Assembly: GCA_050256425.1 (NCBI GenBank)
Contig: JBBWVW010000086.1
Coordinates: 1,015 to 65,014 of the forward strand
Reading direction: 5' to 3'
Length of the DNA stretch: 64,000 nt
From: Arenicellales bacterium
GTDB taxonomy: Bacteria > Pseudomonadota > Gammaproteobacteria > Arenicellales > UBA868
Numbering within the stretch: position 1 is the stretch's first letter; each line of letters begins with the position of its first letter. The notes beneath the pieces are model-generated. The model searched no databases. It saw only the letters and a program-made list of their open reading frames with translations, and had not been told where the DNA came from. Positions 6,806 to 24,496 of the stretch are shown piece by piece. The position numbers and the translations under genes are program-made.

Positions 6806-7375
6806 TCAACTGCGCACAGGGTTGCCGCGGCGCAGCCGAAACACCAGTATCAACAGTGCCAAAGACGCATAACTGACCGGCCACGCCCAATCGCTTCGGA
6901 TCATCAGCAGGTAATGCACCGCCACCAGGGCCAGCGCGATGTAGACCGCGCTGTGCAGGCGCTTCCAGTGACGGCCCAATCGGCGCATCGCAGCTCGCGT
7001 TGAGGTCAGCGCCAGCGCTGACAGCGTCAGCCAGGCGGCAAAGCCCAGCAACACATACGGCCGCTCGGCGATCTCTTCGGCGAGTCGGGGAAAATCCCAG
7101 CCCAGCAAAAAAGAGAGAAAGAACGAAAAATGCGCGCTGGCATAGGCAAAAGCCCACAAGCCGACGGCACGCCGGTAGCGCAGTAGCGCCGGCCAATGTG
7201 CCCAGCGGGCCACGCGTGGCAAAAGCAACACCAGCAACAGCAGGTTGAACGTCCAGATTCCCGTTTCCCAGATCAGGGATTTTTGTGGATCGACCCCCAG
7301 CGCCTGCCCCTGCCAGGCCAACGCCAGAACAATCGCCGGGGTTGCCAAGACCAGGTGTGCGGCAAGGCGAATCAA
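6806..7375 (-). CDS. msrQ: Heme-binding membrane subunit MsrQ
   Basis: RRAVGLWAFAYASAHF, WKRLHSAVY, VH; lies directly downstream of msrP. Confidence 0.88.
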   Translation of the reverse strand: MIRLAAHLVLATPAIVLALAWQGQALGVDPQKSLIWETGIWTFNLLLLVLLLPRVARWAHWPALLRYRRAVGLWAFAYASAHFSFFLSFLLGWDFPRLAEEIAERPYVLLGFAAWLTLSALALTSTRAAMRRLGRHWKRLHSAVYIALALVAVHYLLMIRSDWAWPVSYASLALLILVFRLRRGNPVRS

Positions 7376-8709: not shown

Positions 8710-9075
<366 letters not shown>

Positions 9076-9374: not shown

Positions 9375-10187
9375 CTACATTTCCCGTTGCCAGGTATAAC
9401 GTTGCACCATTTTCGCTACGATGGCGTCAAGCGTATACCCGATGATGCCAATGACTACGACCATCGCTGATAAGTGATCGTATGACAATGTTTCCCTGGC
9501 ATCTTTGATCGCGTACCCAAGGCCTGAGCTAACGCCAAGCAGTTCCGCCGGAACCAGAACCACCCATGCGACACCCAGTGCCAGTCGTATTCCCGTAAAT
9601 ATATCGAAAGCAATTGCAGGAAAAATCACCTCTAATAACGTCTGTCTAAAATTTGCCCCAAGGTTTCTGGATACCTTAAACCATGCCGGATCCACTTTCT
9701 TTAATCCAGCAGCAGTCGCGTAAACAACAGGCCAAATGGCTGCGATTGCAATGAGAAAAATAATAGCTTGATCCCACCTGGGAAAAACAAACACCAGGAT
9801 AGGCATCCAGGATAGTGGGCTCACCATTCGTAGCAATTGAAATGGCTCATTACTGATCTGCTCAGTAACTTTGCTCAGACCGATCGCTATTCCTATTGGC
9901 ACACCAATTAAGACGGCTAAGAACAATCCAATCGCCAAACGGTAACCACTCGCCAGAACATTCTCGGTAATGTATCCGGATGAGAGTAGACCCGGCACCG
10001 CCTTCATTGTTGGAACTAAACCAAACTTGATAAAACTACTCGTCTCCGGGGTAATTGCCAGAAACCAGCTACCGATCGCCCAAAGGACGAGGAGGATTCC
10101 GACTCCTGTGGCCGGGTAAAGAACTCGGTCCCTCAACCAAACCAGACTTGTGTTCCGATCGATACCTTTAATATTTTCGCTAGCCAT
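9375..10187 (-). CDS. ABC transporter permease (NrtB/CynB/SsuC-like)
   Basis: LRMVSPLSWMP, EAA-like loop (SRNLGA) and LVPAELLGVSSGLGY. Confidence 0.9.
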   Translation of the reverse strand: MASENIKGIDRNTSLVWLRDRVLYPATGVGILLVLWAIGSWFLAITPETSSFIKFGLVPTMKAVPGLLSSGYITENVLASGYRLAIGLFLAVLIGVPIGIAIGLSKVTEQISNEPFQLLRMVSPLSWMPILVFVFPRWDQAIIFLIAIAAIWPVVYATAAGLKKVDPAWFKVSRNLGANFRQTLLEVIFPAIAFDIFTGIRLALGVAWVVLVPAELLGVSSGLGYAIKDARETLSYDHLSAMVVVIGIIGYTLDAIVAKMVQRYTWQREM

Positions 10188-10204
10188 GTCTTCAATACGT
10201 TAAG

Positions 10205-11023
10205 TTAACCACGATGCCAACTAAAACGCTTAATCAGTGCCATGCATACGCCGTCCATCAAGAATCCTAATATTCCGATTACCAGGATCATTACTGCCAG
10301 ATTGTCATACATCAAGTTTTCACGTGAGTCCTGGATCGTGTAGCCAAGACCTGAGGTTATACCAAGAAATTCTGCAGGCACAATGACAATCCACGCTACT
10401 CCGACGGCCAGCCGAATACCGGTTAAAACGTCAAATGCGATTGCTGGCAGAATGATCTCCTTCACGACATCCCACCAACGGGCACCGAGGTTTCGGGCAA
10501 CCTTGAACCACGAAGGGTCCAGCTTGGCAAGCCCAGCCGCAGTCGCGAAAGCGACGGGCCAAACCGCTGCCATCGAGATCAAGAAAATAATTGCCTGATC
10601 CCAGGTCGGCATAGCAATTACGGCTATCGGCTCCCAAGACAAGGGGCTTACCATTCTAAGAAATTGGAAGGGTGTATTACTTAACTTACGAAAAACTTTA
10701 CTTCTACCCATCAGAATCCCAATCGGCACTCCTGTGAGTATGGCAAGAAGCAAGCCCATTCCAAGGCGATAACCGCTCGCGAGACTTGCGTTTACTATGG
10801 TTCCGTCTTCGACTAAGTATGAGACCGCATTAAGAGCTGGGCCAGGCCCAAAATCGGCAAAACTGCTCGTTGAAGGGCTGCTCTCAAGTAACCAGCCACC
10901 ATACCACCAGAGACCAAACAAAATTGACAGCCCCATGAGGCTGTAAAACACTCGTGTTACCAGGGTTCTGAAGATTGCTCCCAGACGAGAGAAAGGTTGA
11001 TCGTTATTGGTCACTGTCGACAT
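10205..11023 (-). CDS. ABC transporter permease (NrtB/CynB/SsuC-like), second paralogue
   Basis: LRMVSPLSWEP, ARNLGA and IVPAEFLGITSGLGY. Confidence 0.9.
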   Translation of the reverse strand: MSTVTNNDQPFSRLGAIFRTLVTRVFYSLMGLSILFGLWWYGGWLLESSPSTSSFADFGPGPALNAVSYLVEDGTIVNASLASGYRLGMGLLLAILTGVPIGILMGRSKVFRKLSNTPFQFLRMVSPLSWEPIAVIAMPTWDQAIIFLISMAAVWPVAFATAAGLAKLDPSWFKVARNLGARWWDVVKEIILPAIAFDVLTGIRLAVGVAWIVIVPAEFLGITSGLGYTIQDSRENLMYDNLAVMILVIGILGFLMDGVCMALIKRFSWHRG

Positions 11024-11118
11024 AGCTAATGAAGAGTCTATTTTGTGGATTCTCAGCCAGTCTTCTTGATACGAATCGACGGGCCAAAGTACTCTATTCG
11101 ACTTTGATCGATCGCCGA

Positions 11119-11907
11119 CTATGGTGCTTCATCAGTGCCCCGTTCTTCGATACTTGAAGCCGCCCGGAATGTCTCCATTAAATGTTCGCGAAGTTTTTGA
11201 ACTTCGGAATCCTTAGCGTTACGCTCTTCTGGTAATGAAACGACGATCTCGTCCCTGATTTTCCCTGGTGAACCGGCCATGATCACGGCGCGGTCGGCCA
11301 TCAACACCGCTTCATCAATATTGTGAGTGACTATAACTAGATTTATTCCCAGGCTTTTTGCAATAGAGCGAACATCTTTTTGCAAAGCGGCCCGCGTGAA
11401 CGCGTCCAGAGCTGAAAATGGTTCATCAAGAAGCAGCATTTCGGGCTCCATAACCAAGGACCTTGCGAGCGCCACTCTTTGTTGCTGGCCGCCCGATAAA
11501 TCCTGAACGTTTGAGTCCGCAAAGTCTTCAAGATCTACGAGTTTTATGGTTTTCTCCACACGTTCTTGAATTTTTGATTCTGGCCAGTGAGCGAACTTCA
11601 AGCCGATGCCCACGTTCTGGCGAACATGCATCCACGGAAACAAATGGGGCGCTTGGAACATCATCACCCACCGCGGAGATGGATCCTTCACCGGGACATC
11701 ATCGATTCGGATTTCACCAGCAGTGGGGGCCAACAACCCTGCCATAATATGAAGTAAGGTCGACTTGCCACAACCAGATCGCCCAATAATTGCCAGTACC
11801 TCTCCAGGCAACGATTCTAGATTGACCTGGTCAAAGGTTATCGGGCCACGCGATGCATAGCTATGACTTAGTTCTTTTACGGCGATATGCACGCCCTGCT
11901 TACTCAT
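11119..11907 (-). CDS. ABC transporter ATP-binding protein (NrtD/TauB-like)
   Basis: GRSGCGKST, LSGGQQQR, LLLDEPF and VTH. Start is ATG 11907 or 11952. Confidence 0.93.
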   Translation of the reverse strand: MSKQGVHIAVKELSHSYASRGPITFDQVNLESLPGEVLAIIGRSGCGKSTLLHIMAGLLAPTAGEIRIDDVPVKDPSPRWVMMFQAPHLFPWMHVRQNVGIGLKFAHWPESKIQERVEKTIKLVDLEDFADSNVQDLSGGQQQRVALARSLVMEPEMLLLDEPFSALDAFTRAALQKDVRSIAKSLGINLVIVTHNIDEAVLMADRAVIMAGSPGKIRDEIVVSLPEERNAKDSEVQKLREHLMETFRAASSIEERGTDEAP

Positions 11908-12111
11908 TTCGCCCCTCCTCCTTACGATCTTTATATTTCTTGCGGCTTCCATAATAGGCCAAGCCGAAACTAATCTAACAACATCGACTAAATGCCATTA
12001 CAACATAATGGTTACTTGAATTAACCTTGAGGTTAGTAATAAGGTAATGCCTTTATACTTTAAGTATCCCATAAGTTATCCAAACAGTTAAACTGCAAAC
12101 ATACTTTCTCT

Positions 12112-12149
12112 AAGACGATCTAGTTATCTCCTAAATAGGAAATTCCTAT
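12112..12149 (-). promoter_or_regulatory. LysR-type operator copy 1, facing the ABC ATPase/permease operon
   Basis: Minus strand ATAGG-aattt-CCTAT-ttagga-GATAA-ctag-ATCGTCTT; contains a T-N11-A dyad. Confidence 0.75.
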
Positions 12150-12252
12150 TGGTGCTATTGGTTCTTCTTAAGAACAAGGGTAAACGTAAGAAATGCTAAC
12201 TCAAGATTTTACGATGGCAAACGGCCAATGAACTAGCCCTTGGGCAAAAACC

Positions 12253-13209
12253 ATGCCACGCAACACAATATTTCCTCGCTCCCTAAGGTACCTTTTAGCA
12301 GTCGCCAAGCACTCCAGTTTTACGCGCGCCGCAGAATCCTTGTTCGTTTCTCAGCCCGCTCTTTCCCAACAGATAAAACAACTTGAAGCGCAGATCGGCA
12401 TTCAATTGCTGGAACGTTCCGGACGGAATGTACACCTAACAGATGCCGGAGAAATTTATGTACACCACGTCAAGCGAGCGCTCGCAGAAATAAATGCTGC
12501 TGCGCAGGCCTTAGATGACCTAAGCGACCTAACGCGAGGCTCGCTGAACCTGGGGTTAACGCCAATAACCGACTACCTAACGGCGCCTCTAATCCGAGAC
12601 TTTATCACCAAATACCCGAGAATCTCTTTAAACACTATCGAGATGACACAGCAACAGATTGAAGAAGCGGTGCTGCAGGATCAGGTAAATCTTGGAGTCA
12701 TCTTCAGTGATTCATTTTCTCTTTCTACAAGATCGGCGGATCTAGAGATCTACACACTCTTAACTGACTCCCTCGTGTTGGCGGCCGCGAGTTCCACCCA
12801 TCTAACCACTAATGCTAATGAATGCCTCTATTTGGAAGAAGTTGGCTTAGTGAAGCACCCATTAGCGTTATTGAACTCACAGTTTGAGATGCGAAAGCAA
12901 ATTGATGCGTACTTTTCTTACCATGAGATTACGCCGAACGTCACACTAGAATCCAACTCACTCGGTGTAATTATCGAAGTCGTTCGCTCCGGAGAATTAC
13001 ATACAATATTACCCGCATCAATCGTCAAGTCACTAGGCGGTCTTACTCCACTCACGGTGAGCCCGCCGCTGCCGCAACACACTGTCACTATCATTATCAG
13101 AAAGTCTGCCTATCAAAGTCAGGCTTGTAGCGCTTTCCTTAAGCTTGCGCTGCTTTGGAGTCAGGTCCCTAGAGGCGTGCTCGCAGCAGCAAACAAGGCC
13201 CATGGATAA
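12253..13209 (+). CDS. cynR: CynR-like LysR-family transcriptional regulator
   Basis: HSSFTRAAESLFVSQPALSQQIKQLE and DLSDLTRGSL resemble E. coli CynR; cyanase is nearby. Confidence 0.8.
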   Translation: MPRNTIFPRSLRYLLAVAKHSSFTRAAESLFVSQPALSQQIKQLEAQIGIQLLERSGRNVHLTDAGEIYVHHVKRALAEINAAAQALDDLSDLTRGSLNLGLTPITDYLTAPLIRDFITKYPRISLNTIEMTQQQIEEAVLQDQVNLGVIFSDSFSLSTRSADLEIYTLLTDSLVLAAASSTHLTTNANECLYLEEVGLVKHPLALLNSQFEMRKQIDAYFSYHEITPNVTLESNSLGVIIEVVRSGELHTILPASIVKSLGGLTPLTVSPPLPQHTVTIIIRKSAYQSQACSAFLKLALLWSQVPRGVLAAANKAHG

Positions 13210-13355
13210 CCTAGACAACAACCTAAGTGAACCTTCTTTGGAGAGTTATCAATCATCGCACTTCATTCTTTTGAAAGCGCAAAGCCATTGTAATTAGCTG
13301 GTCTCTTGCTTGGCCGCAGCCTGTTTTTCAGTGATTTCTTTATCCGTCTTTCAAG

Positions 13356-14642
13356 TTAATCTACTTCCTTGCTGATTTGCCGATCAAACAACGACGGTCC
13401 ATAGAGCTCATTGGTGATAAGCGTGCAAATGGTCACAGCAATTATTGAGAAAATCGCCGCCTCGTAAGACAGGGTAAATTCAAGAACAATTAGAACCGTT
13501 GAAATCGGGGCCCCGAAAACAGCGGCAGCGACTGCAGCCATTCCTGCGATACTCAGACTTTCGCCTCCGGCAATTCCCAGAGCGGCTACCATTTTCCCAA
13601 ACAAACACCCTACCCCTGCGCCGATAAAAAGCGATGGCAAGTACACGCCGCCGTGCATCCCGCAGCCGATACATGTCACAGTAAGGAGCAGTTTAGATAT
13701 AACCAAAATTACTATTGTGGTCACCGCAAGATTGTTATGAAGAAGATCTGGAATTACATCAAGGCCAAGACCAAGCGCCCCGGGAACCCAAATTCCAATT
13801 ACTCCGCAGACCATTGCCGCAAAAATTAATGGCCCGATCCGCCCTTTCCAGGAATGATCAACCTTTTCGGTTACCTTCCCGAGCATAATCATGAAAACAA
13901 CTGCTGTAATCGCAAAAATAGGAGCGCCAAGGATAACAAACGGAAGTAACTCCAGCATCGAGCCTCCGACAACCTGATCGAATTGAATCCGACGTTCACC
14001 CAACATTTGTTCACTTAGGGCACTAGCCGTAATAGCCGCTATCGAAATCGGAGCAACTGCTCGTAGTGAGAATCGACGTAACACAACCTCATGGGAGAAA
14101 ACGATTGCCGCCATCGGCGTACCAAAGCCTGCGGCAATGGCGCCAGCAACACCGCATCCAATCCACGTCGAAGTAGAAATCGTGCTCCGAAGCACTCTAG
14201 AAACACCAGACCCGATAGCTCCACCGAAATGAACCAAGGGCCCATACTGTCCGACTGAAGCTGCCCCTCCAACCGAAATCAGCGCCGCCAGTGTAGAGCC
14301 AAAGCCAATTCGGATATCAACAACTTCACCAGATTGTGCAGCTTGAATCGTTTCTGCTGGGCCGTGAAACCGTTCGACTCTAAGGATGCGACGCAATCCA
14401 TATATGAGAAACGCCGCGGCCAGAAGAAATACCGGGCTGACAATTACTACCCATCCGTCCCCGTAACTTGAGGCGATGCGTCCAATAAAATCCGAGAAAT
14501 GTTTTATAGACTCTGCGATAAAAAGAAAGCCGCTCGCCGCGATGGCCATTATGGCTCCAATTCCCACTCCAACACCAACTCTTAAAAAAGAGTCTCTAAT
14601 AGGGCGATGACCCAGTTCTTTCACTGTTAAGTTTGTTTCCAT
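13356..14642 (-). CDS. CLC-family anion channel/transporter, atypical, no CBS domains
   Basis: GQYGPLVHFGG, GVAGAIAAGFGTPMAA, GGVYLPSLFIGA and AAVFGAPIS. Start trimmed to ATG 14642. Confidence 0.88.
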   Translation of the reverse strand: METNLTVKELGHRPIRDSFLRVGVGVGIGAIMAIAASGFLFIAESIKHFSDFIGRIASSYGDGWVVIVSPVFLLAAAFLIYGLRRILRVERFHGPAETIQAAQSGEVVDIRIGFGSTLAALISVGGAASVGQYGPLVHFGGAIGSGVSRVLRSTISTSTWIGCGVAGAIAAGFGTPMAAIVFSHEVVLRRFSLRAVAPISIAAITASALSEQMLGERRIQFDQVVGGSMLELLPFVILGAPIFAITAVVFMIMLGKVTEKVDHSWKGRIGPLIFAAMVCGVIGIWVPGALGLGLDVIPDLLHNNLAVTTIVILVISKLLLTVTCIGCGMHGGVYLPSLFIGAGVGCLFGKMVAALGIAGGESLSIAGMAAVAAAVFGAPISTVLIVLEFTLSYEAAIFSIIAVTICTLITNELYGPSLFDRQISKEVD

Positions 14643-14754
14643 ACTACCGGTCTGCAATCGTTGCCTTTGTGCACTATGAGACCAGCCCAGGTCAACGCCC
14701 AATCGTGCTATGGCTTCTCGAACCTTTTAAATGTTTCGTCTGGCGACGTGGCCC

Positions 14755-15195
14755 TCACCACGAACGGTACGGGAGAAACTTTCCACTCAAATCAAGGCGT
14801 ACTCGATCTCCATTTTCATTTTCTTCTCTAGATAAAGTCATTCTGAAATCGATCGCAGACATTATCCCATCCCCGAATTCCTCATGTATCAGCTCTTTAA
14901 TTGTCTCCCCATATACCCCTACCATTTCATAAAGCCTGTATATCACCGGATCCGTCGGTACGGTCTGTTCCCATTTTTTGTTTGGAAACTGCTGCAACGC
15001 AATTGATGCGTCCGCTGATAGCTCGAGATAGTTCACGACAGCATCCGCGTCCTCTTTATCCATATGGTTCATGCCAAGACAAGCCGAAACGACAAACTCA
15101 GGAGACATCGAGGTCTGCTCTGCTATCTGCCTCCATGAAACCGATTTCTTCGTTTTCGCTGTCTTGATCTCCTCTGACATCTTTACCTTATCCAT
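14755..15195 (-). CDS. cynS: Cyanate hydratase (cyanase)
   Basis: PTDPVIYRLYE, IHEEFGDGIMSAIDF and GKFLPY. ATG 15195 has a GGGAG SD. Confidence 0.96.
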   Translation of the reverse strand: MDKVKMSEEIKTAKTKKSVSWRQIAEQTSMSPEFVVSACLGMNHMDKEDADAVVNYLELSADASIALQQFPNKKWEQTVPTDPVIYRLYEMVGVYGETIKELIHEEFGDGIMSAIDFRMTLSREENENGDRVRLDLSGKFLPYRSW

Positions 15196-15298
15196 TTTCA
15201 AGCTCCCTAACCAAATTGTTTGTTGATGTATTGATGAACAACCTTATAGACCCAGGTACAACATTGTGATCTGATCGCGCCCACGCACTATGTGATAT

Positions 15299-16303
15299 CT
15301 AGTTCTGGCCAGAACGCTGAAGTAGTCTGGCGTCATTTGCCATCCCATAGATTTCAATGTTCCAACCTAACTCGACATCCAGTTGCTTTCGAGCAAGTCC
15401 GCGAAGTCGCTCGCCGAACCTCTCTATTTCAGATACGTCTAATTTCTTTTTCCCGATCAGAATATTCGGATAACGAGAATCCAGCCGTAGGCTTGAATCG
15501 GCGTCCTGCAAATCCCCAAGTTCAGCAATAATAGCTTTTGCTTTTGGGAGTTCTAGCTGCGACTTGGCATTATCGAATTCTTTTTGAATCACATAAAACG
15601 CATGTCCTGTGCGAAAACGCTCTGTTGAGTATGTTTTCTGATGTAGTGCTTTCATTCGAGAAAGCTTCTCCTCGAGTAAGGCAACGCGTCTTCGCTCTGG
15701 CTTAAGGACGGCCTGGACGATCACGCCGGTCTTAAGTTTCTCGCACAGCCTTGTGACCGTATCGACGTGGCCACGCTTTATTGTCTCTACCCGCCCATCT
15801 CGCCTCACAATCGTCGCGCGTAAAAAAGAATCGAGGATGCCGTTCTCAGCAAAACACGCGTTGCTGGCGAGGGCTCCACCAATGGTTCCGGGAATTGCCC
15901 CCAGAAAGGTAAGGTCAAAACCGTTTTCCAGCGCTTTTAGCACAATGTCTTTGGTGAATGCTCCTGCGCCCACTCGTATGGCGTTATTGGGCAGCACCTC
16001 AAAACCATTAAAGCGGGCCCCTAGGGACACTACTAGGCCCGCGAACCCCTCCTTTCTGAAAATCACATTCGAGCCTGACCCAGATGGAAGCACGGCAATT
16101 GATTCGGGCAGATCACGCATCAGAACACATAGGTCTGCCATATTCAAAGGTTGAATCAGTGCTACGGCCTTCCCACCAGAGTTAAACCACGTTTGTAGCG
16201 CAAAGTGAGCATCAAACTCAATATCACCTTGGATGTTGCCCAAGTAAGGCTTCGCGTCATTAGCCGTTAACGGCGACCCATCCTTACTGATAATGCTGCG
16301 CAA
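15299..16303 (-). CDS. MurB-fold FAD-binding protein with substituted catalytic residues
   Basis: FAD motifs GSGSNV and GAIPGTIGGAL are retained. SxGSVF is replaced by RTGHAF, HANF by YPNI, and LxxE by LGWN. Confidence 0.7.
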   Translation of the reverse strand: MRSIISKDGSPLTANDAKPYLGNIQGDIEFDAHFALQTWFNSGGKAVALIQPLNMADLCVLMRDLPESIAVLPSGSGSNVIFRKEGFAGLVVSLGARFNGFEVLPNNAIRVGAGAFTKDIVLKALENGFDLTFLGAIPGTIGGALASNACFAENGILDSFLRATIVRRDGRVETIKRGHVDTVTRLCEKLKTGVIVQAVLKPERRRVALLEEKLSRMKALHQKTYSTERFRTGHAFYVIQKEFDNAKSQLELPKAKAIIAELGDLQDADSSLRLDSRYPNILIGKKKLDVSEIERFGERLRGLARKQLDVELGWNIEIYGMANDARLLQRSGQN

Positions 16304-16474
16304 AATAGTGCTACCTCGGCGAATACTATCTTTCGTTAGTTTCTCATCCGCTTTATCTTCGACGCCATCTTAGATTGTCTGACACACCAGGGTGGCCCCG
16401 CTTGAAAAAGTGTATCTACAGCCATTCTCATTGTAAAACTCTGGGATTCTCAGTGATCAGCTCGCCTAGGCCAG

Positions 16475-16512
16475 ATAGGTTTTTCCTATTCTCTGGATAA
16501 AATAATCGTCTT
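16475..16512 (+). promoter_or_regulatory. LysR-type operator copy 2, facing DUF1348
   Basis: ATAGG-ttttt-CCTAT-tctctg-GATAA-aata-ATCGTCTT running into TTGAAT (-35-like). Confidence 0.78.
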
Positions 16513-16628
16513 GAATTTGACCACATCGCTGTCATGATGTTTCGTAGACTTGAAAGGCTCGATCTTCAAAATAGTCAAATTCACTATAGTTCGTCGAACT
16601 GAAATAACCAGAGGTTTTGGGAGGATTA

Positions 16629-17099
16629 ATGCAACCAACTGATCTTAAACCCCCGTTTAACTCGTCTACTGCAGCCAAAAAAGTACAGATGGCTGAGAAC
16701 GCATGGAATACTCGCGATCCAGAACGTGTGAGCCTGGCCTATACACCAGATAGCACATGGCGGAATCGCTCAGAACATTTCCAGGGACGAGACGCCATCG
16801 TGAAATTTCTTACCAAGAAATGGGAGAAAGAACTTGATTATCGTTTAGTCAAAGAACTCTGGGCATTTTCAGAGAACCGCATAGCCGTACGATTCCAGTA
16901 TGAATGGCGCGATCAAGAACAACATTGGCACAGATCATATGGAAACGAGCTGTGGGAATTTTCCGAAGAGGGCTTAATGCGGCGGCGGGAAGCAAGCATC
17001 AATGATGTTGCTATTGATGTTAGCCAACGTCGATTTTTCTGGCCCAGCCCAGGCCATCGACCCTCTGACCATGCTGGCCTGCTTCAGAGCCCAGAGTAA
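16629..17099 (+). CDS. DUF1348 / SnoaL-like (NTF2-fold) protein
   Basis: [36 protein letters not shown] and [10 protein letters not shown]; GGAGGA SD. Confidence 0.9.
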
Positions 17100-17228
17100 T
17101 TTAATGAGCTTATTAACCAGTGGTGGAATACTGGCGCCCGGTCCCCCTATTCTACAAATCGAGCCGCGGTGTGCTGCCACCCCAGGCAAGAAACTGCGCG
17201 GTGAACTACTGCCTTCGTGATCGTATTC

Positions 17229-17645
17229 TCAGGAAGTCTTTTGGGTGTGAGCGTTAAATTTTTTGAGAAACCCGGCTAACGAATAAATAGCTTGCTGGAC
17301 TTCGGAATCACGCAACAATCGAATCAATCCCAGATACCCACCATGACTCATGTTTTTTTCATCATTAGCGCCATCAAGGAGTTTCTCAGAGGTAAGCGCT
17401 TTTGCGACGCCCTCTAAATTCTCTTGCACTGCAGGGTCGCCTAGCGCCTGCAAGAGATGCATCAGCCCTTCGTTTCTCGTCACACGATCCATCAGGATCA
17501 TTCCTTCCCCAATCGTTGCTGCCAAACGTGTAACGATATCGTCAGTCATTGCATCCTGCGCGGCTGCAATGGCTGATGCTAACTCAATTAATTTATCAAG
17601 ATTTTGGGTTTCCAGATTGGCGCCCGCTTCTTTCAATTCGTTCAT
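17229..17645 (-). CDS. DUF1641-domain protein
   Basis: GYLGLIRLLRDSEVQQAI terminus; the family typically follows SQR-like genes. Confidence 0.75.
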   Translation of the reverse strand: MNELKEAGANLETQNLDKLIELASAIAAAQDAMTDDIVTRLAATIGEGMILMDRVTRNEGLMHLLQALGDPAVQENLEGVAKALTSEKLLDGANDEKNMSHGGYLGLIRLLRDSEVQQAIYSLAGFLKKFNAHTQKTS

Positions 17646-17695
17646 CGTATTTTTTCCATAGACATTGCAGTTGATGTTCTGGAAACTACTTTCGA

Positions 17696-18829
17696 TCAGA
17701 GAAGACCTCGCGCCGAGGACCAATACCATTGGTTATAGGACATCTTCAGCATGTGCATCGACTTGGTTGGCGGCCTGATTTCCGGTGGATCAATATAATT
17801 GAAGCATGCATTAGTTGCGCGGTCCTGGTCTGCTTCGATAAAGCAATACACCTTGCCGTCGTACTCTCGTGTTGCCGTCCCGGTTCGACAAAGAGATGCG
17901 ATGTTCTCACCGATTACTTCACTTTCAAAGTGGGCGGTTGAACCTGTTTTGCTGATTGGCAGGTTAGTGGTATCACCAAGCACGAAGACGTTATCCTGGC
18001 CGTCCATCCTTAGCGAATAACGGTCAGTCGGTATCCAGCCCCCCTCGCCAAGGTTATTATCTTCTATCACCTGCATACCTCTGTGAGGAGGGACGGCGAC
18101 TAACAGATCGAATTCTTTTTCTGTCCCCTCTTCGCTATGTACGATTTTGTTTTCGACATCGATCTCTTTCATATTGAAGAAAGTTTCGTAATCGACTTCC
18201 ATCCGCGCAAATTCCGGGATTGCCCATTTCGCGATGTTTTCAATGTTGTGTATCCGCGCAATCGGATAGGTGTACTTGAGATCGACCTTGTCGCGAATGC
18301 CGCGTTTTTTAAAAAATTCATGCAGCATGAAAGTGATCTCGATCGGCGCGATGGGACACTTATGCGGAACACCAACCACCACCACTACCTTGCCCCCTTC
18401 GAAGTCGCGCAGTTTTTTAAACATACTGACAGCGCCGTCTCGGGTATACGGTGTTTCAGACGACTCCTTAAGTCCAGGCACCTCGTCATATACCGCTTCA
18501 CAACCAGTCGCTATCACTAGCATGTCATAGTCATGGACAACCCCGGCTTTGGTACGAACGCGGTTACTGCTCATTTCAAATTCTTCAACAGGATCAACGA
18601 AAAACTTGATGCCCGGCTCCAAAAGACTCGATTGATCACGACAAATATCGTTAAGAGCCATTTTGCCAAACGCAACGTAAAGGAGCCCAGGCTGATACCA
18701 GTGTTGGTCCGAAGCGGACAACATTGTGATCTCCACGCTGCCTTGTCTGATTTCTTTGGAGAGTCGTCGCGCAACATTGTTTGCGGCGATCGTTCCGCCC
18801 ATTCCACCCCCGACGAACAGAATTCTCAT
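17696..18829 (-). CDS. sqr: Sulfide:quinone oxidoreductase-like flavoprotein (type III-like)
   Basis: GGGMGG FAD motif, HKCPIAPIE, VPPHRG, LPISKTGSTAHFE and VYCFIE (two active-site Cys). Confidence 0.8.
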   Translation of the reverse strand: MRILFVGGGMGGTIAANNVARRLSKEIRQGSVEITMLSASDQHWYQPGLLYVAFGKMALNDICRDQSSLLEPGIKFFVDPVEEFEMSSNRVRTKAGVVHDYDMLVIATGCEAVYDEVPGLKESSETPYTRDGAVSMFKKLRDFEGGKVVVVVGVPHKCPIAPIEITFMLHEFFKKRGIRDKVDLKYTYPIARIHNIENIAKWAIPEFARMEVDYETFFNMKEIDVENKIVHSEEGTEKEFDLLVAVPPHRGMQVIEDNNLGEGGWIPTDRYSLRMDGQDNVFVLGDTTNLPISKTGSTAHFESEVIGENIASLCRTGTATREYDGKVYCFIEADQDRATNACFNYIDPPEIRPPTKSMHMLKMSYNQWYWSSARGLL

Positions 18830-18914
18830 TTAGACCTCCTTATGAAATGCCAAACCCACTTTCGAAAAATACTTTTCACCACATACAAACTAACACCAGA
18901 CGGAAAGGGATATT

Positions 18915-19145
18915 TCACTTTATCTTGCGAACCTTTATGTGCCATACGTCATCGATCTTTTCGTTGCTAACAAGCTCGTGACCCACTTTACTGATCCACT
19001 CCGGTACATCGTTTGCAGAACCTTTATCGGTAGACAGCAGTTCTAACTGGTCTCCGACTCCAGCCCGCTTCATGAATGAGATCAGTTCCATCAACGGCCC
19101 TGGACAAAAAGTGTTCCGGGCATCGACTATTTTTTCTTCGGACAT
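18915..19145 (-). CDS. tusA: TusA-family sulfur carrier
   Basis: VDARNTFCPGPLM (CPxP) and DVPEWI motifs. Confidence 0.9.
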   Translation of the reverse strand: MSEEKIVDARNTFCPGPLMELISFMKRAGVGDQLELLSTDKGSANDVPEWISKVGHELVSNEKIDDVWHIKVRKIK

Positions 19146-19183
19146 AACGCTTCTCCACAAATGACACTTAGTGCCAGTTTCGT

Positions 19184-19576
19184 CTAAAACGAGACTATTC
19201 TTCCGTCTTCTGCATCAGAGAGGAACCGGGTCAATCCAGTAGCAGGTCCAAACTCTAACATCAGATCATCTGGACTAACCTTAAGGAGATCTAGAGCCAT
19301 TGAGCAGGCCAATAATTTAGCATCTCCGAGTTCGGCTGCCTGTTCAAATAATACCCTGAACTCTGGGACGCCCTTGACACCGATTAAATCCCCGAATGGT
19401 CCCTCCTTTGGCGGCACTAAGGTCGCATTCTGCTTAACGAGGAATTGAAGAGCGTTCATCGAAAAAAAGACCGACACTTCGCTTCCACTTGCTGCCGCGA
19501 CAGAAGCGACCATCGCTGCCATTTGCAGTTTTTCGAGTGTTCCAGAAACACAAATTATTGATAGTTTGCTAGTCAT
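19184..19576 (-). CDS. DsrE/DsrF/DrsH-like (DsrE2-type) sulfurtransferase
   Basis: SGTLEK, AAASGSEVSVFFS and KLLACSMALDLL (conserved Cys). Confidence 0.85.
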   Translation of the reverse strand: MTSKLSIICVSGTLEKLQMAAMVASVAAASGSEVSVFFSMNALQFLVKQNATLVPPKEGPFGDLIGVKGVPEFRVLFEQAAELGDAKLLACSMALDLLKVSPDDLMLEFGPATGLTRFLSDAEDGRIVSF

Positions 19577-19732
19577 GCTGATACTTGATTGGTAGTGAAC
19601 CGAACCTGTGTGAAGGAGCTCTAATTCTTGAAGAGCCTCACCTAACGGAGTTTTACGAAACTAGGCTTGTCATCTTCAGAGGCGCAACCCTATGAGTCTA
19701 CGAGACATCCTGACCCCAATGTGGCCAGTTTC

Positions 19733-19770
19733 AAGACGATAATTTTATCTGAAGAATAGGAAAAACCTAT
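19733..19770 (-). promoter_or_regulatory. LysR-type operator copy 3, facing dsrE-tusA-sqr
   Basis: Minus strand ATAGG-ttttt-CCTAT-tcttca-GATAA-aatt-ATCGTCTT running into TTGAAA. Confidence 0.78.
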
Positions 19771-19877
19771 ACTGGCCAAGCAAACTTATAACTAAAGCGT
19801 TAAAAACCTCAACAAGCAGTGTTCCTGAAAATCTACTATTCAGCCAGATCAGATGACCTTTGGGCTTGGTAGAGAAA

Positions 19878-20606
19878 TCAGCTCTCGCTTTGGATATGCC
19901 GCCTCACTGCCCAGCCCGAAAAACCCCCAAGCACCAGCCATAAGATCAGACTGCTAAGGCCAGTGGCTAGCAGAAAATCTTTTGACAACTCGGAGAGTTG
20001 ATCAGCGATGGCTATCGGAAACCCTTCGTAGAGATTCTCCGCGTGCGGTGCACCGTATATATGTGGCGCGCACAGAAGAACAACCAACCCGAGCCACTTC
20101 CATGGGCTACTCAGTATGTAGGCCAGGTACATACCTGCCCCACTACAGATTACAGTCGCTGTCCACCACCATTGCCTTAGTTCTAACGCAGCACCGGAAA
20201 CCCCCGGGATTTCAGGAGAAATACCAAAAGAAGGAGCGGCAAAAAAGGCAATGAAGCCTCCAAGGCCCCAAATGATCCCGGAAGAGGCGCTGATTTCAGT
20301 ATTTTTCCCAAACTTCAGTGAGGCCGTAGCTATTAAAGCGACCAGGACAAGTGCAAATCCAACAGCAGTTAATACGTTCGATAAAATCGTAAACAGAGTT
20401 CGCTCGATTCCATCACTGGGTTCCCAGTCCTCATCATGCTGGCCATCAGCGACTTGCGCTGTGTCTCCGGCGCCGACTTTCAGGCTTTCAAATTTCTCAG
20501 CCTGAACAATGATCGGAATCACTTGCCAGCGCTGGGCCAGACTGAGGGCAATGCCCCCAATCAGCCCAGCGATAAGCGCTATAACGATCAGCCGGCGAAA
20601 CAGCAT
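19878..20606 (-). CDS. cbtA: Cobalt transporter subunit CbtA
   Basis: VIPIIVQAEKFE, WEPSDGIERT, APSFGISPEIPG, RQWWW and PHIYGAP. Start trimmed to ATG 20606. Confidence 0.88.
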   Translation of the reverse strand: MLFRRLIVIALIAGLIGGIALSLAQRWQVIPIIVQAEKFESLKVGAGDTAQVADGQHDEDWEPSDGIERTLFTILSNVLTAVGFALVLVALIATASLKFGKNTEISASSGIIWGLGGFIAFFAAPSFGISPEIPGVSGAALELRQWWWTATVICSGAGMYLAYILSSPWKWLGLVVLLCAPHIYGAPHAENLYEGFPIAIADQLSELSKDFLLATGLSSLILWLVLGGFSGWAVRRHIQSES

Positions 20607-20619
20607 AACCGCCGCGGCC

Positions 20620-20814
20620 TTAGTGGCAGGGGAAGCCTTGAGAATGGCGCATATCGTGCCCCGCATTGTGGACTGATGATGTCTGAACAAAAGCGGCGGC
20701 AAACAACACTGTGGCACCAAGGGCAAACGCGCAAACAAGCTGCAAGCCCTTGCTGGCAAGCATTGGCGCTACCTGTGGAACTTCAACAACGTTTTGGTTG
20801 ACATGATTTTGCAT
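20620..20814 (-). CDS. cbtB: Cobalt transporter subunit CbtB
   Basis: Single TM helix followed by HNAGHDMRHSQGFPCH. Confidence 0.9.
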   Translation of the reverse strand: MQNHVNQNVVEVPQVAPMLASKGLQLVCAFALGATVLFAAAFVQTSSVHNAGHDMRHSQGFPCH

Positions 20815-20888
20815 AACTAAATCTCCTGGATTAAATTTTTTGACCACTAATCTTTAACCACTTTAGATGGTATTTTCGTATCGTCCGT

Positions 20889-22292
20889 TTAGATGATAAA
20901 CACCTCTTCGCGTTCGAACGGATTATCACCCTTTGGCACACTTGGATCGTTTCTCCATTCCGGATTAGCCATTAAAGAATTCCTTATATAGTCGTACTGC
21001 ACCAAGTCATTGACGACGAACTCTGGATCTAAAGTATCCAAGAACGTTCTATCGCCAGTGACTACCGTTTCGTTTTTCAACTCGTTTACTACCAAGCGTG
21101 TCGCAGAGGGGTAAGGCCATGCTTGGAAATCAATCCGATTTTGACCCCATTCTGTATGACGGATAGCTGCAGGATTATTGTAGTACGCCGGGTCGTAGAA
21201 CAACATAGCGCGCTCGACCACCTTGCTGGGGAAGGGATAGTACTTCTTGCCCTCACGCGACAACATCTGGGCCATTTCCTTGCGGTTAGATCCGGTGTAC
21301 AACTGGGCTTTAACAATCGCGTTATGCACTCCTTGAGCCCACGCAGCATGTTCTGGATCCATACAATCATCTTCATGCATGACTACGACACAGCATGGGT
21401 GTCCTTTCCAGACGTCGCCAGTGAATCGAAGCACTTTGCCGCCTGCCTTGATTTCACCTAAGGCATTAAAGGGTTCCGCAACGCAATACCCATCTATTTT
21501 TTTGGCCGCCAAAGCTGGTGGCATATCGGGCGGTGCTAAGACCTGGTAATTACATTCGTTTGCCGCCAAAGCTGCATCTTGTGGTCGAATGACCGATGTA
21601 ATACCTGCCGCTTTCATGATTTTTTGAGAGACGATATTATGAATTGAGTACCAATATGGTACAGCGAATTGCTTACCGCCAAAATCTGCCGGCGTCTTAA
21701 TATCTGCGTTTACAACGATCGCCGATCCGTTACTGTGATCCCAGGCGGTGACCTTCACCGGATACTGATTGTTATACCTCATCCAAATTGGTATCGGGAT
21801 AAGCATATGGGTCAGATTAAATCGGTGTGCAGAGAAAGCCTCTACCAGTGGAGACCAACCTCTAATGAGGGTTGGACGCTTGGAGTCAATACCTTCTTCT
21901 TTGAAGAAGCCCAGTTCATGTGCGACCAGAAGTGCTGCTGCGTCCGTGATCGGTATGTAGCAAATATTGATAACTGGATCGAATTTTTTCTTACCGAATG
22001 CGGGAAGCCCTGTAAGCCCAGTACCAGCAAGTGCTGCGCCGGCCTGAAGGACCGAGCGGCGGCTGATTCCCGTTCCCATAAATCCGCCAAACAGTGGATC
22101 AGAATTTGTCTTTAGGTATGGATCATCAATTCCATCACCAAATTTCTTGGCATCGAGGGGCAGACCCTTTTCATCAATGGGACCACCATCGACAAACTGC
22201 GCTTCCTCTGGGTCTAATAACTCTTTCTTAATAGCCGTAGACTGCGCTTTTGCTGCTAGAAACTTCACCTCTTCCTGTGTTAGCTTAGACAT
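20889..22292 (-). CDS. ABC transporter substrate-binding protein (NrtA/CmpA/CynA-like)
   Basis: YIPITDAAALLVAHELGFF, AVPYWYSIHN, GYCVAEPFNA and HPCCVVV; internal TAT motif SRRSVLQ. Confidence 0.9.
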   Translation of the reverse strand: MSKLTQEEVKFLAAKAQSTAIKKELLDPEEAQFVDGGPIDEKGLPLDAKKFGDGIDDPYLKTNSDPLFGGFMGTGISRRSVLQAGAALAGTGLTGLPAFGKKKFDPVINICYIPITDAAALLVAHELGFFKEEGIDSKRPTLIRGWSPLVEAFSAHRFNLTHMLIPIPIWMRYNNQYPVKVTAWDHSNGSAIVVNADIKTPADFGGKQFAVPYWYSIHNIVSQKIMKAAGITSVIRPQDAALAANECNYQVLAPPDMPPALAAKKIDGYCVAEPFNALGEIKAGGKVLRFTGDVWKGHPCCVVVMHEDDCMDPEHAAWAQGVHNAIVKAQLYTGSNRKEMAQMLSREGKKYYPFPSKVVERAMLFYDPAYYNNPAAIRHTEWGQNRIDFQAWPYPSATRLVVNELKNETVVTGDRTFLDTLDPEFVVNDLVQYDYIRNSLMANPEWRNDPSVPKGDNPFEREEVFII

Positions 22293-22479
22293 ACCTTTCC
22301 TCCAGCGTTAGCCGTTTTCTATTTAAAGTTAAAGTCTAATTCCTTCCAGAACGTATACTCGTCTTCTTATTACATCTGTCTCTCGTATATAACCTCACTA
22401 ACTTCCAATTGATTGTGTGCGTCCAATAGTAACTTGCGTTTTGGTACTATCGAGCCCAGCTGGCCTGCTTGCATTTCGC

Positions 22480-22815
22480 TCAAACTGCGTTCAGTCGCGT
22501 TTCAATAACCTTCATTTGTTGCGCAAGATCTTCTTCCGTAATAACTCCCCGTAGAATCATGCTGTGAGCAAGTGCAAGAAGTTGACGCTCTGGATGTGGA
22601 ATGTGCTTATAGTGATCCTCTACCAGATCATCCTCTTCACCCCGTCGTTCTAGAACAGGCAGGGCACACGCCCCCTCGTTGAGAACTTCACAGGTACTTT
22701 CGAGTGTTATCCTCCAGGGAGGATCTGGATTATCAACGCCATACTCCTCGCATAGGTCGGCCCACACCCGTCCTTCCTTTCCAATCTGTTCCAGCAATGG
22801 AATTGGTTTAGACAT
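22480..22815 (-). CDS. Thiocyanate hydrolase activator/accessory protein (P15K-like)
   Basis: Directly after scnC. NHase-beta-like C-terminus HPERQLLALAHSMILRGVITEEDLAQQM. Confidence 0.7.
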   Translation of the reverse strand: MSKPIPLLEQIGKEGRVWADLCEEYGVDNPDPPWRITLESTCEVLNEGACALPVLERRGEEDDLVEDHYKHIPHPERQLLALAHSMILRGVITEEDLAQQMKVIETRLNAV

Positions 22816-22824
22816 TTTTCAGAC

Positions 22825-23535
22825 CTAATGACCGTAAGGATGTACTGCGCGGTGAATCGGCCGCGTGTCGTCCGCCTTTCGATCTGCGCGTGGCATTGCG
22901 ACACCGATCAAGCAATCCCGTGTCACGATCTCCGCTAGTTGATCTTCGCTCCACCCTTCAGTGCCTTCAGGGCGGGTTGGCATCACCACGTATCTGGTCT
23001 TCTGGTTGGAATCAGCGACCCTTATTTCGACATCCTCGGGCAACTGCAGGCCGAACTCTGCTAGGACTTGGCGCGGCCACCTGACCAGTCGGCGACGATA
23101 ATTAGGGGTTCTGTACCACTCAGGGGACTGACCCAGTATAGGTCTTGGGTAGCAAGAACAAAGCGTGCACACCACTACATGCTTAAGCGTTGGTGTATCC
23201 ACCAGAATCCGGGGGTTGCAATAGTCGCTCGGTGTCCCAAACTTGGTTGGCATCGTGTTAATCCAGTCAATGCCTACATCAAGACTCGCCTTTACAGGAT
23301 CGTCTATACATAGTTGCTTGTAATCTTCATCTAGCCACGCCTTTGCGACCAATCGACCCGCGGGAAGCGGCCCAAGGGTATGCATATACTCTGTCCACTG
23401 GTTATGGTCATCTTGAGTGAATAGCCCTTTTTCAATACAGAGTTCACGGACCGCTACCTCAAGTACTTCAAAGTCGCTGACCTCATCCACCATAGGCGCA
23501 GGTGGACGGTGATCGTGATCATGTGAGTTTGACAT
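22825..23535 (-). CDS. scnC: Thiocyanate hydrolase gamma subunit (cobalt-binding)
   Basis: VVCTLCSCYPRPILGQSPEWYR. Thr marks Co-type, and Arg after YP is SCNase-like (NHases have Trp). Closely resembles Thiobacillus thioparus ScnC as I recall it. Confidence 0.95.
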   Translation of the reverse strand: MSNSHDHDHRPPAPMVDEVSDFEVLEVAVRELCIEKGLFTQDDHNQWTEYMHTLGPLPAGRLVAKAWLDEDYKQLCIDDPVKASLDVGIDWINTMPTKFGTPSDYCNPRILVDTPTLKHVVVCTLCSCYPRPILGQSPEWYRTPNYRRRLVRWPRQVLAEFGLQLPEDVEIRVADSNQKTRYVVMPTRPEGTEGWSEDQLAEIVTRDCLIGVAMPRADRKADDTRPIHRAVHPYGH

Positions 23536-23612
23536 TATGTTTTCCTCTTTACGTCAGACGAGTTCTTTTTCGTTTTTTACTTTGTGATCGATAGTAAAAT
23601 TATCTAGGCCGA

Positions 23613-23966
23613 TCAAATAGCCTCTAACCATCTTTCAGATAGTTCGGTCTCGAGCGTATCCCCTGCAAATTTGGGGGGATAATCTGGCCATAGGTCAGTT
23701 TGATTGAACACTACACTGTAGAACCACTCTGGAGTGTCTGTGTTATCCCAAGCCTCGTCCTCGGCAGCAGGACTTTCGTAAACCAACTTGACGACTATTG
23801 CCTCTGCTTCGCGAAGGTACATCTGCGAACGGGAATAGAAGATATCTGGCAAGTTGCGGATGCGCACTTTATCGCCCACGTTAAACTTCGGCTTTCCTGC
23901 CTCTCCCTTGAAGCACTGAGGATCCCCAATGCCAGTTGCTTTCTCAGCGTGATGATTATTACTCAT
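23613..23966 (-). CDS. scnA: Thiocyanate hydrolase alpha subunit
   Basis: ATGIGDPQCFKG, KFNVGDKVRI, LVYESPAAEDEA and DTLETE. Confidence 0.93.
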   Translation of the reverse strand: MSNNHHAEKATGIGDPQCFKGEAGKPKFNVGDKVRIRNLPDIFYSRSQMYLREAEAIVVKLVYESPAAEDEAWDNTDTPEWFYSVVFNQTDLWPDYPPKFAGDTLETELSERWLEAI

Positions 23967-24393
23967 AAATCTCCCCTCGCTTCTTAACCTCGTCGATCTT
24001 ATTAACCAATTCGGTCAGGGTAATATGCTGCTTGTCGACCAGCACTAGCGCCGCTGTCATCAACCACCTGCCGTAATACGGTAGCCCGAGGTATTGGGTC
24101 TGCCCGACGTCCACGTTTTGCCGCCGCCTACGCTCTTCAGCGTTCCAAACGCCACGCCATGCTAATACCTCACAGGTGACAAAAGTATTGTGTTCCCAAA
24201 TCTCCTCTTCTTTTTCTTCCCACGTTATAGGAATGTCGGCCTCACCTCCAACATCATGGGAGGAGCGTGTGTAAGCGCGGTAATGCGCGTTATCAATTAG
24301 GTCGGGATAAGGGGCGTGCTGCGGCTGATGAAGCGCAGGCTGAAGCTGCGCAACAATATTTAGATGCCGCATGATATTTTCGCGAGTTGACAT
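23959..24393 (-). CDS. scnB: Thiocyanate hydrolase beta subunit
   Basis: QPALHQ, HDVGGEAD, EKEEEIWE, LAWRGVWNAEERRRRQN and YLGLPYYGRW. Start trimmed to ATG 24393; overlaps scnA by 8 nt. Confidence 0.93.
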   Translation of the reverse strand: MSTRENIMRHLNIVAQLQPALHQPQHAPYPDLIDNAHYRAYTRSSHDVGGEADIPITWEEKEEEIWEHNTFVTCEVLAWRGVWNAEERRRRQNVDVGQTQYLGLPYYGRWLMTAALVLVDKQHITLTELVNKIDEVKKRGEIYE

Positions 24394-24458
24394 ATCTGTT
24401 TTGCGTCTCCGAATTGGAATTCTCAGCTTAAAACTACTCCTTGATCGTCCTTTGTGCC

Positions 24459-24496
24459 AAGACATTCTGGTTATTGACTGTATAAGAAAAGTCTAT
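24459..24496 (-). promoter_or_regulatory. LysR-type operator copy 4 (diverged), facing scnB
   Basis: Minus strand ATAGA-ctttt-CTTAT-acagtc-AATAA-ccag-AATGTCTT with identical spacing, running into TTGGCA; TAGTTT lies 18 nt further on. Confidence 0.65.

Follow-up and report, generated by a model that had tools for sequence, protein, structure and literature searches.

A bipartite CynR-type operator predicted at four transcription units of a thiocyanate hydrolase island in an Arenicellales bacterium

Introduction

The closest described system is the cynR-cynT intergenic region of Escherichia coli, where the LysR-type transcriptional regulator (LTTR) CynR gives a DNase I footprint of about 60 bp with a high-affinity element, R1, of sequence ATAAGTAAA (Lamblin and Fuchs, 1994, as summarised in Oliver et al., 2016, PMC5002191). 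The same region carries 15-bp inverted repeats of the type ATAA-N7-TTAT, named IR1, IR2 and IR3, whose centres lie at -66, -44 and -34 relative to the start of cynT, and E. coli CynR activates from this architecture (Oliver et al., 2016, PMC5002191). Its effectors are cyanate and azide, two linear triatomic anions (bioRxiv 10.1101/2020.07.08.193060). Here we analyse a stretch of 64,000 nucleotides (the window; contig JBBWVW010000086.1, positions 1,015 to 65,014, or C86:1015-65014) from the draft genome of an Arenicellales bacterium (GCA_050256425.1; 2.67 Mb, 199 contigs). The window holds a thiocyanate hydrolase (scn) island in which one 38-bp motif occurs four times, and we conclude from sequence comparison that the four sites are, with high probability, operators of the island's own CynR-family LysR regulator.

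To our knowledge, the induction of thiocyanate hydrolase genes has not been worked out so far. Full-text literature searches on thiocyanate hydrolase brought up no paper tying a LysR/CynR regulator to scn genes, and the comparative-genomics papers on thiocyanate oxidisers that we consulted treat only sigma-54 regulators of the unrelated thiocyanate dehydrogenase. A preliminary description of the window had proposed that a CynR-like protein controls all four units behind the motif, possibly sensing thiocyanate, and the present work follows up that proposal.

Results

Four copies of one bipartite motif

The motif has the consensus ATAGG-N5-CCTAT-N6-GATAA-N4-ATCGTCTT, with 23 specified bases in its 38 bp. 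All four copies were found at the positions and on the strands first described, three of them exact and one diverged, and gene annotation agrees with the target unit that had been assigned to each:

12112-12149, minus strand: predicted operator S1, 23/23 bases, between the divergent CynR-like gene and the ATP-binding cassette (ABC) ATPase/permease operon
16475-16512, plus strand: predicted operator S2, 23/23 bases, facing DUF1348
19733-19770, minus strand: predicted operator S3, 23/23 bases, facing dsrE-tusA-sqr-DUF1641
24459-24496, minus strand: predicted operator S4, 5/23 bases changed (ATAGACTTTTCTTATACAGTCAATAACCAGAATGTCTT), facing scnB (scnBAC, substrate-binding protein gene, cbtBA)

S1 consists of the dyad ATAGGAATTTCCTAT (the IR1 equivalent), 103 nt upstream of the divergent regulator gene, followed by ATAA-N7-GTCT (the IR2 equivalent). 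The first dyad (15 bp, T-N11-A) is a perfect ATAGG-N5-CCTAT in S1 to S3 and reads ATAGA-N5-CTTAT in S4, and the second dyad, ATAA-N7-GTCT, is centred 22 bp from the first in all four sites alike. The hexamers TTGAAT, TTGAAA and TTGGCA, which had been noted downstream of three copies, do occur there, and the hexamer at S1 is TTAGAG.

When the window was shuffled by dinucleotides (n=100), no motif match appeared at three or fewer mismatches. Over both strands of the whole draft genome, five or fewer mismatches occur only at S1 to S4, the runners-up having six. About 0.7 chance sites are expected genome-wide at that level by a uniform-base estimate, and S4 is therefore not significant on mismatch count alone. 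However, S4 is independently validated as the top genome position under a matrix from other lineages (see below) and by its orthologous place upstream of scnB, which is kept in relatives. The motif family was also recovered de novo by a repeat finder (D2 and I2), where the match among S1, S3 and S4 is limited to the 38-bp motif and the resemblance lies mainly at motif positions. One further position, 13076-13113, within the 3' end of the regulator gene, was taken as a chance match (seven mismatches, 6 bits, coding sequence).

Similarity to the E. coli CynR operator

The gene divergent from S1 encodes the candidate regulator:

12253-13209, plus strand: CynR-type LysR regulator, 318 aa, Pfam HTH_1 and LysR_substrate

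This protein exceeds the cut-off of the NCBIfam CynR equivalog NF008416 (318.9 versus 277 bits) and is the sole such match in the genome. It is 41% identical to E. coli CynR over 299 aa, its only relative in the PDB is the CynR effector domain (2hxr/3hfu), and the helix that reads the DNA, VSQPxLSQQI(K/R)QLE, hardly differs between the two proteins.

The E. coli cynR-cynT intergenic sequence, ATAAGTAAATCCAAT GGAACTC ATCATAAATGAGACT TTTACC, could be aligned with the motif over its full length, such that motif positions 1-15 fall on IR1 and positions 23-37 (ATAA-N7-GTCT) on IR2. E. coli R1 falls within the first dyad of the aligned site. In addition, a position weight matrix (PWM) was built exclusively from sites linked to scn genes in lineages outside the Arenicellales, E. 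coli not being among them. Under this matrix the E. coli cynR-cynT operator reaches 20.6 bits, whereas the runner-up in its 2.7-kb region is at -20 bits, and a single position among 5.3 million in the window's genome attains 20.6 bits, namely S4.

The leader predicted for the ABC operon also holds two ATAAG boxes, at 12039-12047 and 12071-12079, whose ATAAG core is kept in relatives. They are ATAAGGTAA, the same as E. coli CynR R2, and the palindrome ATAAGTTAT; their starts are 32 nt apart, at about +35 and +1. These boxes could be extra low-affinity CynR contacts or the site of a second regulator.

Specificity and co-occurrence with CynR

The commonness of the motif, which had been named as a possible objection, was addressed by the mismatch counts above and by matrix scans of the genome and of other scn loci. 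With a 38-bp matrix trained on scn-linked sites of other lineages and 5.3 million positions scored, S4 ranked first in the genome, S1 second, S3 fourth and S2 fifth. The third rank fell to C182:33132-33169, an ATAG-type box (ATAGGTAATAACGAT) 9 bp before an OxyR-like LysR gene (33178-34137; best family match OxyR, 255.9 bits); no other position outside the island scores in the range of the window sites, and the box evidently belongs to that regulator itself. In the reverse direction, a matrix trained on Arenicellales-type sites placed its top match between the regulator gene and scnB in 19 loci of the sponge-symbiont type, and it also recovered the box in three of the five further CynR loci of the class sample introduced below.

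The strict pattern, allowing up to one mismatch, gave eight matches over 41 related genomes, three of them in the window's genome and one S1-type match in each of five congeners, all of these being island-carrying genomes; the reversed pattern, run as a control over the same 41 genomes, gave none. Among the 24 congeners covered by both the motif and the CynR search, the motif is present in all five with CynR and in none of the 19 others. A sample of 201 genomes of the class contains six with a CynR above the cut-off, and in four of these (the window's genome included) the gene lies beside scnBAC. The bipartite box was found at all five further above-cut-off CynR loci of this sample and at none of four LTTR loci below the cut-off.

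Conservation of the sites

Comparison loci were gathered through regulator homologues (99, 91, 75 and 63-65% identity) and through the binding protein. The island was found at the same chromosomal place in marine metagenome-assembled genomes (MAGs), several of them titled Arenicellales. In an alignment of 13 Arenicellales-type loci, S1 is the sharpest kept block of an otherwise variable intergenic region, and S3 is present at the orthologous position in all of them, with flanks that vary. The S4 orthologue, ATTGATTTTTCTTAT-N6-GATAACGAGATAGTCTTGG, stands 61-62 nt upstream of scnB in relatives. The phylogenetic footprints of S1, S3 and S4 extend over relatives with regulators of 63-99% identity. 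A perfect S2 is confined to the sub-lineage of the window (regulator 91-99% identical); where the regulator is 63-66% identical S2 is degenerate, reading ATCyGATTTTCTTAC...GATAA...TTGG with the GATAA/TTGG register kept.

Outside the order, where the regulator is 40-50% identical, the box takes the form ATAGnnnnnnCCTAT-N6-(G/A/C)AT(A/C)A-N6-AGTCTTGG. In sponge-symbiont-type gammaproteobacteria it separates the regulator gene from scnB; it stands beside the regulator gene and again upstream of scnB in Thiobacillus-type MAGs; the dyad overlaps the regulator start codon in some of these other lineages. One or two extra boxes are frequent there. For example, the Thiobacillus-type locus L049 has one box before cbiM-cynS-hydrolase and a second before the genes from scnBAC through DUF1641. 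In some sponge-symbiont-type loci DUF1348 adjoins cynS and the regulator gene on the same strand.

In sponge-symbiont-type genomes a further box precedes a gene for a 542-aa protein; in locus L035 the box is at 14881-14918 and the gene at 13119-14747 (minus strand). We found no Pfam match and no relative among solved structures for this protein, which is a candidate for addition to the thiocyanate regulon.

Core promoters downstream of the sites

Candidate promoter elements, all on the minus strand, were recognised downstream of three sites:

12085-12113, minus strand: candidate core promoter of the ABC operon, -35 TTAGAG (12113-12108), 17-nt spacer, -10 TAACTG (12090-12085)
24431-24460, minus strand: candidate core promoter of the scn operon, -35 TTGGCA (24460-24455), 18-nt spacer, -10 TAGTTT (24436-24431)
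19695-19706, minus strand: near-invariant block GTCTCGTAGACT, 26 nt downstream of S3, motif positions 65-76

At S1 the -10 block is kept at the same distance in all aligned relatives, as TAACTG (window), TAATGT or TACTGT. At S4 the spacing between -35 (TTGGAG/TTGGCA) and -10 (TATGTT/TATTTT/TAGTTT) is kept in nine of ten aligned loci, the outlier being L055. As these -10 elements stand 17-18 nt past the TT-hexamer that abuts the motif, the first dyad of S1 and S4 would be centred at about -65 and the second at about -43, as in E. coli.

Of 13 aligned loci, 12 have the block GTCTCGTAGACT almost unchanged and equally far from the operator, with only L055 deviating; at S2 the block has the counterpart GTTTCGTAGACT (16539-16550). 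It is kept more than a -10 hexamer alone needs, and it forms a GTCT/AGAC palindrome that repeats the GTCT half-site of the second dyad.

The island's best match to the sigma-70 consensus, TTGAGA-16-TACAAT at 24575-24548 (minus strand, 10/12), lies just upstream of S4 and faces through it; it is not kept in relatives. Another sigma-70-like match, TTTACA-17-TACACT at 16437-16409 (minus strand), precedes the FAD-cynS-CLC unit and is weak evidence only.

An inverted repeat enclosing S2 and S3

S2 and S3 lie within the arms (16452-16550 and 19695-19793) of a 99-nt inverted repeat of 78% identity (repeat finder, I1). In relatives with the same gene order and a 63-66% identical regulator, S2 and S3 are alike only at motif positions. 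The repeat is thus specific to the window's sub-lineage, and it follows that the DUF1348 promoter received the S3 operator and core promoter by fairly recent copying or conversion. The replacement gave DUF1348 a perfect box again. A mobile cassette bounded by inverted repeats was considered and set aside, as S2 and S3 of the relatives are alike only at motif positions and no transposase gene was seen in the segment.

Genes of the island

The island block, at about 8.5-26.5 kb, has 46-49% G+C against 58-62% in its flanks and is bounded by msrPQ-like genes and a PhzF-like gene. It is an accessory island at a fixed locus, since ScnC exceeds its cut-off in only 8 of 28 species of the genus. Besides the regulator gene, it contains the following units:

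9375-11952, minus strand: unit 1, ABC ATPase (11119-11952) and permeases (10205-11023, 9375-10187), Pfam ABC_tran and BPD_transp_1
13356-16303, minus strand: FAD_binding_4 (MurB-like)-cynS-CLC unit, within the island, divergent from S2
16617-17099, plus strand: unit 2, DUF1348/SnoaL-like gene, Pfam PF07080, 213.9 bits
17229-19576, minus strand: unit 3, dsrE (19184-19576), tusA (18915-19160), type III sulfide:quinone oxidoreductase (SQR)-like flavoprotein (17696-18829) and DUF1641 protein (17229-17729)
19878-24394, minus strand: unit 4, scnB (23959-24394), scnA (23613-23966), scnC (22825-23535), 111-aa protein (22480-22815), NMT1-type substrate-binding protein (20889-22292) and cbtB/cbtA cobalt transporter (19878-20847), by Pfam

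The ABC genes of unit 1 are of the nitrate/sulfonate/taurine type (NCBIfam), and the true start of the ATPase is probably a little downstream of the 11952 end. CbtB was called in relatives. ScnC exceeds the equivalog cut-off for the thiocyanate hydrolase gamma subunit (370 versus 291 bits, NCBIfam). The longest open reading frame of scnB starts at an ATG (24465) that falls within S4, and an automatic annotation using it would bury S4 in coding sequence. However, alignment with relatives gives ATG 24394 as the conserved start, preceded by GGAGA and giving MS(T/N)RENI, which puts the end of S4 64 nt before scnB.

The binding-protein gene of the scn operon (20889-22292) lies about 9 kb away from its ATPase/permease genes (9375-11952); sponge-type and Thiobacillus-type loci have ATPase, substrate-binding protein and both permeases contiguous. 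At the low-GC edge of the island, an RRM_1 RNA-binding protein (8710-9075) has a glycine-rich tail derived from a GGC/GGT repeat array. Elsewhere in the genome (C47:11213-11761) there is a second nitrile-hydratase-alpha-like gene (181 bits, below the cut-off for the thiocyanate hydrolase gamma subunit), with similar paralogues in many congeners.

Discussion

Taken as a CynR-type LTTR operator, which is how the comparisons above place it, the motif would work by the canonical mechanism and fit ordinary LTTR biology. ATAGG-N5-CCTAT (T-N11-A) would be the high-affinity recognition site, equivalent to IR1, and ATAA-N7-GTCT the weaker activation site, equivalent to IR2, reaching up to the target's -35 or stopping just short of it. 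If the regulator behaves like E. coli CynR and other LTTRs, it would sit on both dyads as a tetramer and bend the DNA; a small linear anion, once bound, would shift the promoter-proximal contact and thereby let RNA polymerase start. This complex would, at S1, also autoregulate the divergent regulator gene. One local regulator would then probably switch the whole thiocyanate pathway, its predicted regulon comprising thiocyanate hydrolase with the binding protein and cobalt transporter, the ABC ATPase/permeases, the DsrE-TusA-SQR module and DUF1348. We infer binding, activation rather than repression, the start sites and the effector.

That the CynR-like protein controls all four units, as first proposed, agrees with every computational test applied, be it regulator identity, homology to the E. 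coli operator, conservation, specificity or co-occurrence with CynR. There are, however, several points that weigh against it. The fifth unit, FAD-cynS-CLC, contains the classical CynR target, cyanase, and has no box in its own orientation within the window. The region upstream of this unit also holds S2, which has a symmetric dyad, but a further half-operator facing the FAD gene was rejected, since neither GATAA nor GTCTT elements come after the dyad when it is read in reverse. In the locus L009 (regulator 75% identical, no FAD gene) a box at 7014-7051 (minus strand) between cynS and DUF1348 faces cynS, and the orientation of this intergenic box is thus flipped between that lineage and the window's. 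Thiobacillus-type loci likewise have a box facing cynS, as the first or second gene behind it. The count of exact copies must also be discounted: as S2 was recently copied from the S3 promoter, the three exact sites do not represent three separate events, and the identity of S2 and S3 comes in part from duplication and not from selection on the operator alone. Nor is the dyad unique to one binder, given that an OxyR-like LTTR in the genome uses ATAG-type boxes.

Promoter geometry adds to these reservations. The recognition- and activation-binding site (RBS/ABS) geometry typical of LTTRs, with a -35 abutting the motif, had been proposed for the sites, and it is well supported only at S1 and S4, where the -10 is conserved. 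At S2 and S3 the -10 implied by an abutting -35 (CATGAT/CAGGAT) is not conserved. The more likely -10 of these two promoters appears to be TAGACT (19700-19695 at S3), about 10 bp further downstream, which would place the operator one helical turn further upstream, with dyad centres at about -75 and -53. A scan with the sigma-70 consensus was uninformative, with 13 matches against 21 expected by chance from shuffles.

A different binder is conceivable in the OxyR-like LTTR (C182:33178), which might occupy the sites instead of or together with CynR, the island then answering oxidative or sulfur stress and not a pseudohalide. The classical OxyR consensus, ATAG-N7-CTAT-N7-ATAG-N7-CTAT, agrees with IR1 and IR2 in its core and in the 22-bp spacing of its two dyads, and OxyR too is an LTTR with a divergent autoregulated gene. 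The one off-island position that scores like the window sites sits directly before this gene, and OxyR and CynR have been grouped as one architectural type (PMC5002191). Yet the resemblance stops at the first dyad: the second is ATAA-N7-GTCT, not ATAG-N7-CTAT, and matches only five of eight consensus positions in all four sites, so that an identification as OxyR boxes was rejected. Furthermore, the motif travels with cynR, being divergent from or overlapping the cynR start in every lineage, while the OxyR-like gene has a separate box at another place in the genome; genomes of the genus without CynR lack the motif; and the motif is homologous over its full length to the site footprinted with CynR in E. 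coli. Binding by the OxyR-like protein is consequently given little weight.

Two further explanations were weighed. The regulator could bind the sites but serve chiefly as a repressor or roadblock to transcripts that begin upstream of the motif, and not as a class-II-type activator, as the sigma-70-like matches facing through the operators before S4 (TTGAGA-16-TACAAT, 24575-24548) and before S1 (TTGCCA-16-TAGCAT, 12220-12193) would allow. Such matches are, however, fewer than chance predicts, and neither of these two is kept in relatives, whereas the -10 elements downstream of the motif are. E. coli CynR, moreover, activates from the same architecture (PMC5002191), and we regard repression as every bit as improbable as an OxyR-type binder. 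Slightly less probable again is that the copies are products of duplication, of a promoter cassette or an inverted-repeat-bounded segment, and that S1 is the only one to work as an operator. S2 and S3 are indeed arms of an inverted repeat, which brackets DUF1348 and the sqr module, and S2 is perfect only in the window's sub-lineage and degenerate elsewhere. Against this, S1 resembles S3 and S4 mainly at motif positions, the repeat match being the 38-bp motif; S3 and S4 are kept at orthologous positions across lineages despite variable flanks; even the degenerate S2 retains the GATAA/TTGG register; and other lineages independently have two to three boxes per locus. We thus prefer the reading of all four sites as CynR-type operators.

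An important question concerns the effector. The regulon centres on thiocyanate hydrolase and its supply and disposal functions, which speaks for thiocyanate. E. coli CynR, which accepts azide besides cyanate, points the same way. In addition, in three genomes where a CynR-like gene adjoins scnBAC, the whole record searched contains no cyanase domain (G243, locus L043; G244, locus L046; G153, locus L078), this set being made up of two complete chromosomes of 3.6-3.7 Mb and one 94%-complete MAG. L043 has the dyad ATAAGAATTTCCTAT between the regulator gene and scnB, and L078 has the full box. Such pairing of a CynR-like gene and scnBAC without cyanase favours thiocyanate as the effector. For cyanate, the regulator falls within the CynR equivalog definition, and cynS is the first or second gene behind the box in Thiobacillus-type loci. 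On balance we would tentatively put thiocyanate first, without giving it an even chance; cyanate is only somewhat less probable, and both anions together, or another ligand, less probable again. By the same tentative estimate, a large branch of the CynR family may be sensors of thiocyanate and not of cyanate, with the four-operator regulon as a thiocyanate-inducible switch. If so, this would be the switch for thiocyanate hydrolase, transporters and sulfur disposal in abundant marine Arenicellales-type sulfur oxidisers, in sponge symbionts and in Thiobacillus, and the regulator and its box would be ready parts for a thiocyanate biosensor.

What is new here is the content of the predicted regulon (thiocyanate hydrolase, transport, cobalt supply, sulfur relay/SQR and DUF1348), the multiplication of the operator to four units following the splitting of an operon that other lineages keep in one piece, and an indication that part of the CynR family serves thiocyanate. 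The work offers a concrete regulon, with one regulator and a 38-bp box kept across several scn-carrying lineages. The predicted co-regulation ties DUF1348, the DUF1641 protein and the 111-aa protein to thiocyanate metabolism, and it opens a route toward understanding why cyanase travels with an enzyme that forms carbonyl sulfide.

Apart from OxyR boxes, the window can be set beside two kinds of known system. The Thiobacillus-type and sponge-symbiont-type scn clusters of public MAGs share with it scnBAC, the 111-aa protein, an ABC transporter, dsrE-tusA-sqr-DUF1641 or cynS, and a cobalt transporter, as well as an adjacent CynR-like gene and a bipartite box upstream of scnB. However, those clusters form one or two long operons with one to three boxes, whereas in the window's lineage the genes are spread over five units or more, of which four have a box to themselves, and the substrate-binding protein gene stands apart from the ATPase and permeases. 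The E. coli CynR operator is alike in its 15-bp T-N11-A dyad (ATAAG-N5-CCAAT in E. coli, ATAGG-N5-CCTAT in the window) and in a second dyad 22 bp downstream that ends at the -35 (ATCA-N7-GACT and ATAA-N7-GTCT, respectively). The likeness extends to the regulator equivalog with its near-identical recognition helix, to the divergent regulator gene (at S1 in the window) and to PWM cross-recognition in both directions through intermediate lineages. There are also clear differences. The window sites have no evident counterpart of IR3 (centre -34, R2 ATAAGGTAA) inside them, and the effector may differ from that of E. coli CynR. Finally, E. coli has one operator for one operon of carbonic anhydrase, cyanase and transporter, whereas the window has four, serving thiocyanate hydrolase, cobalt and ABC transport, the sulfur-relay/SQR module and DUF1348, with the cyanase unit lacking an oriented site.

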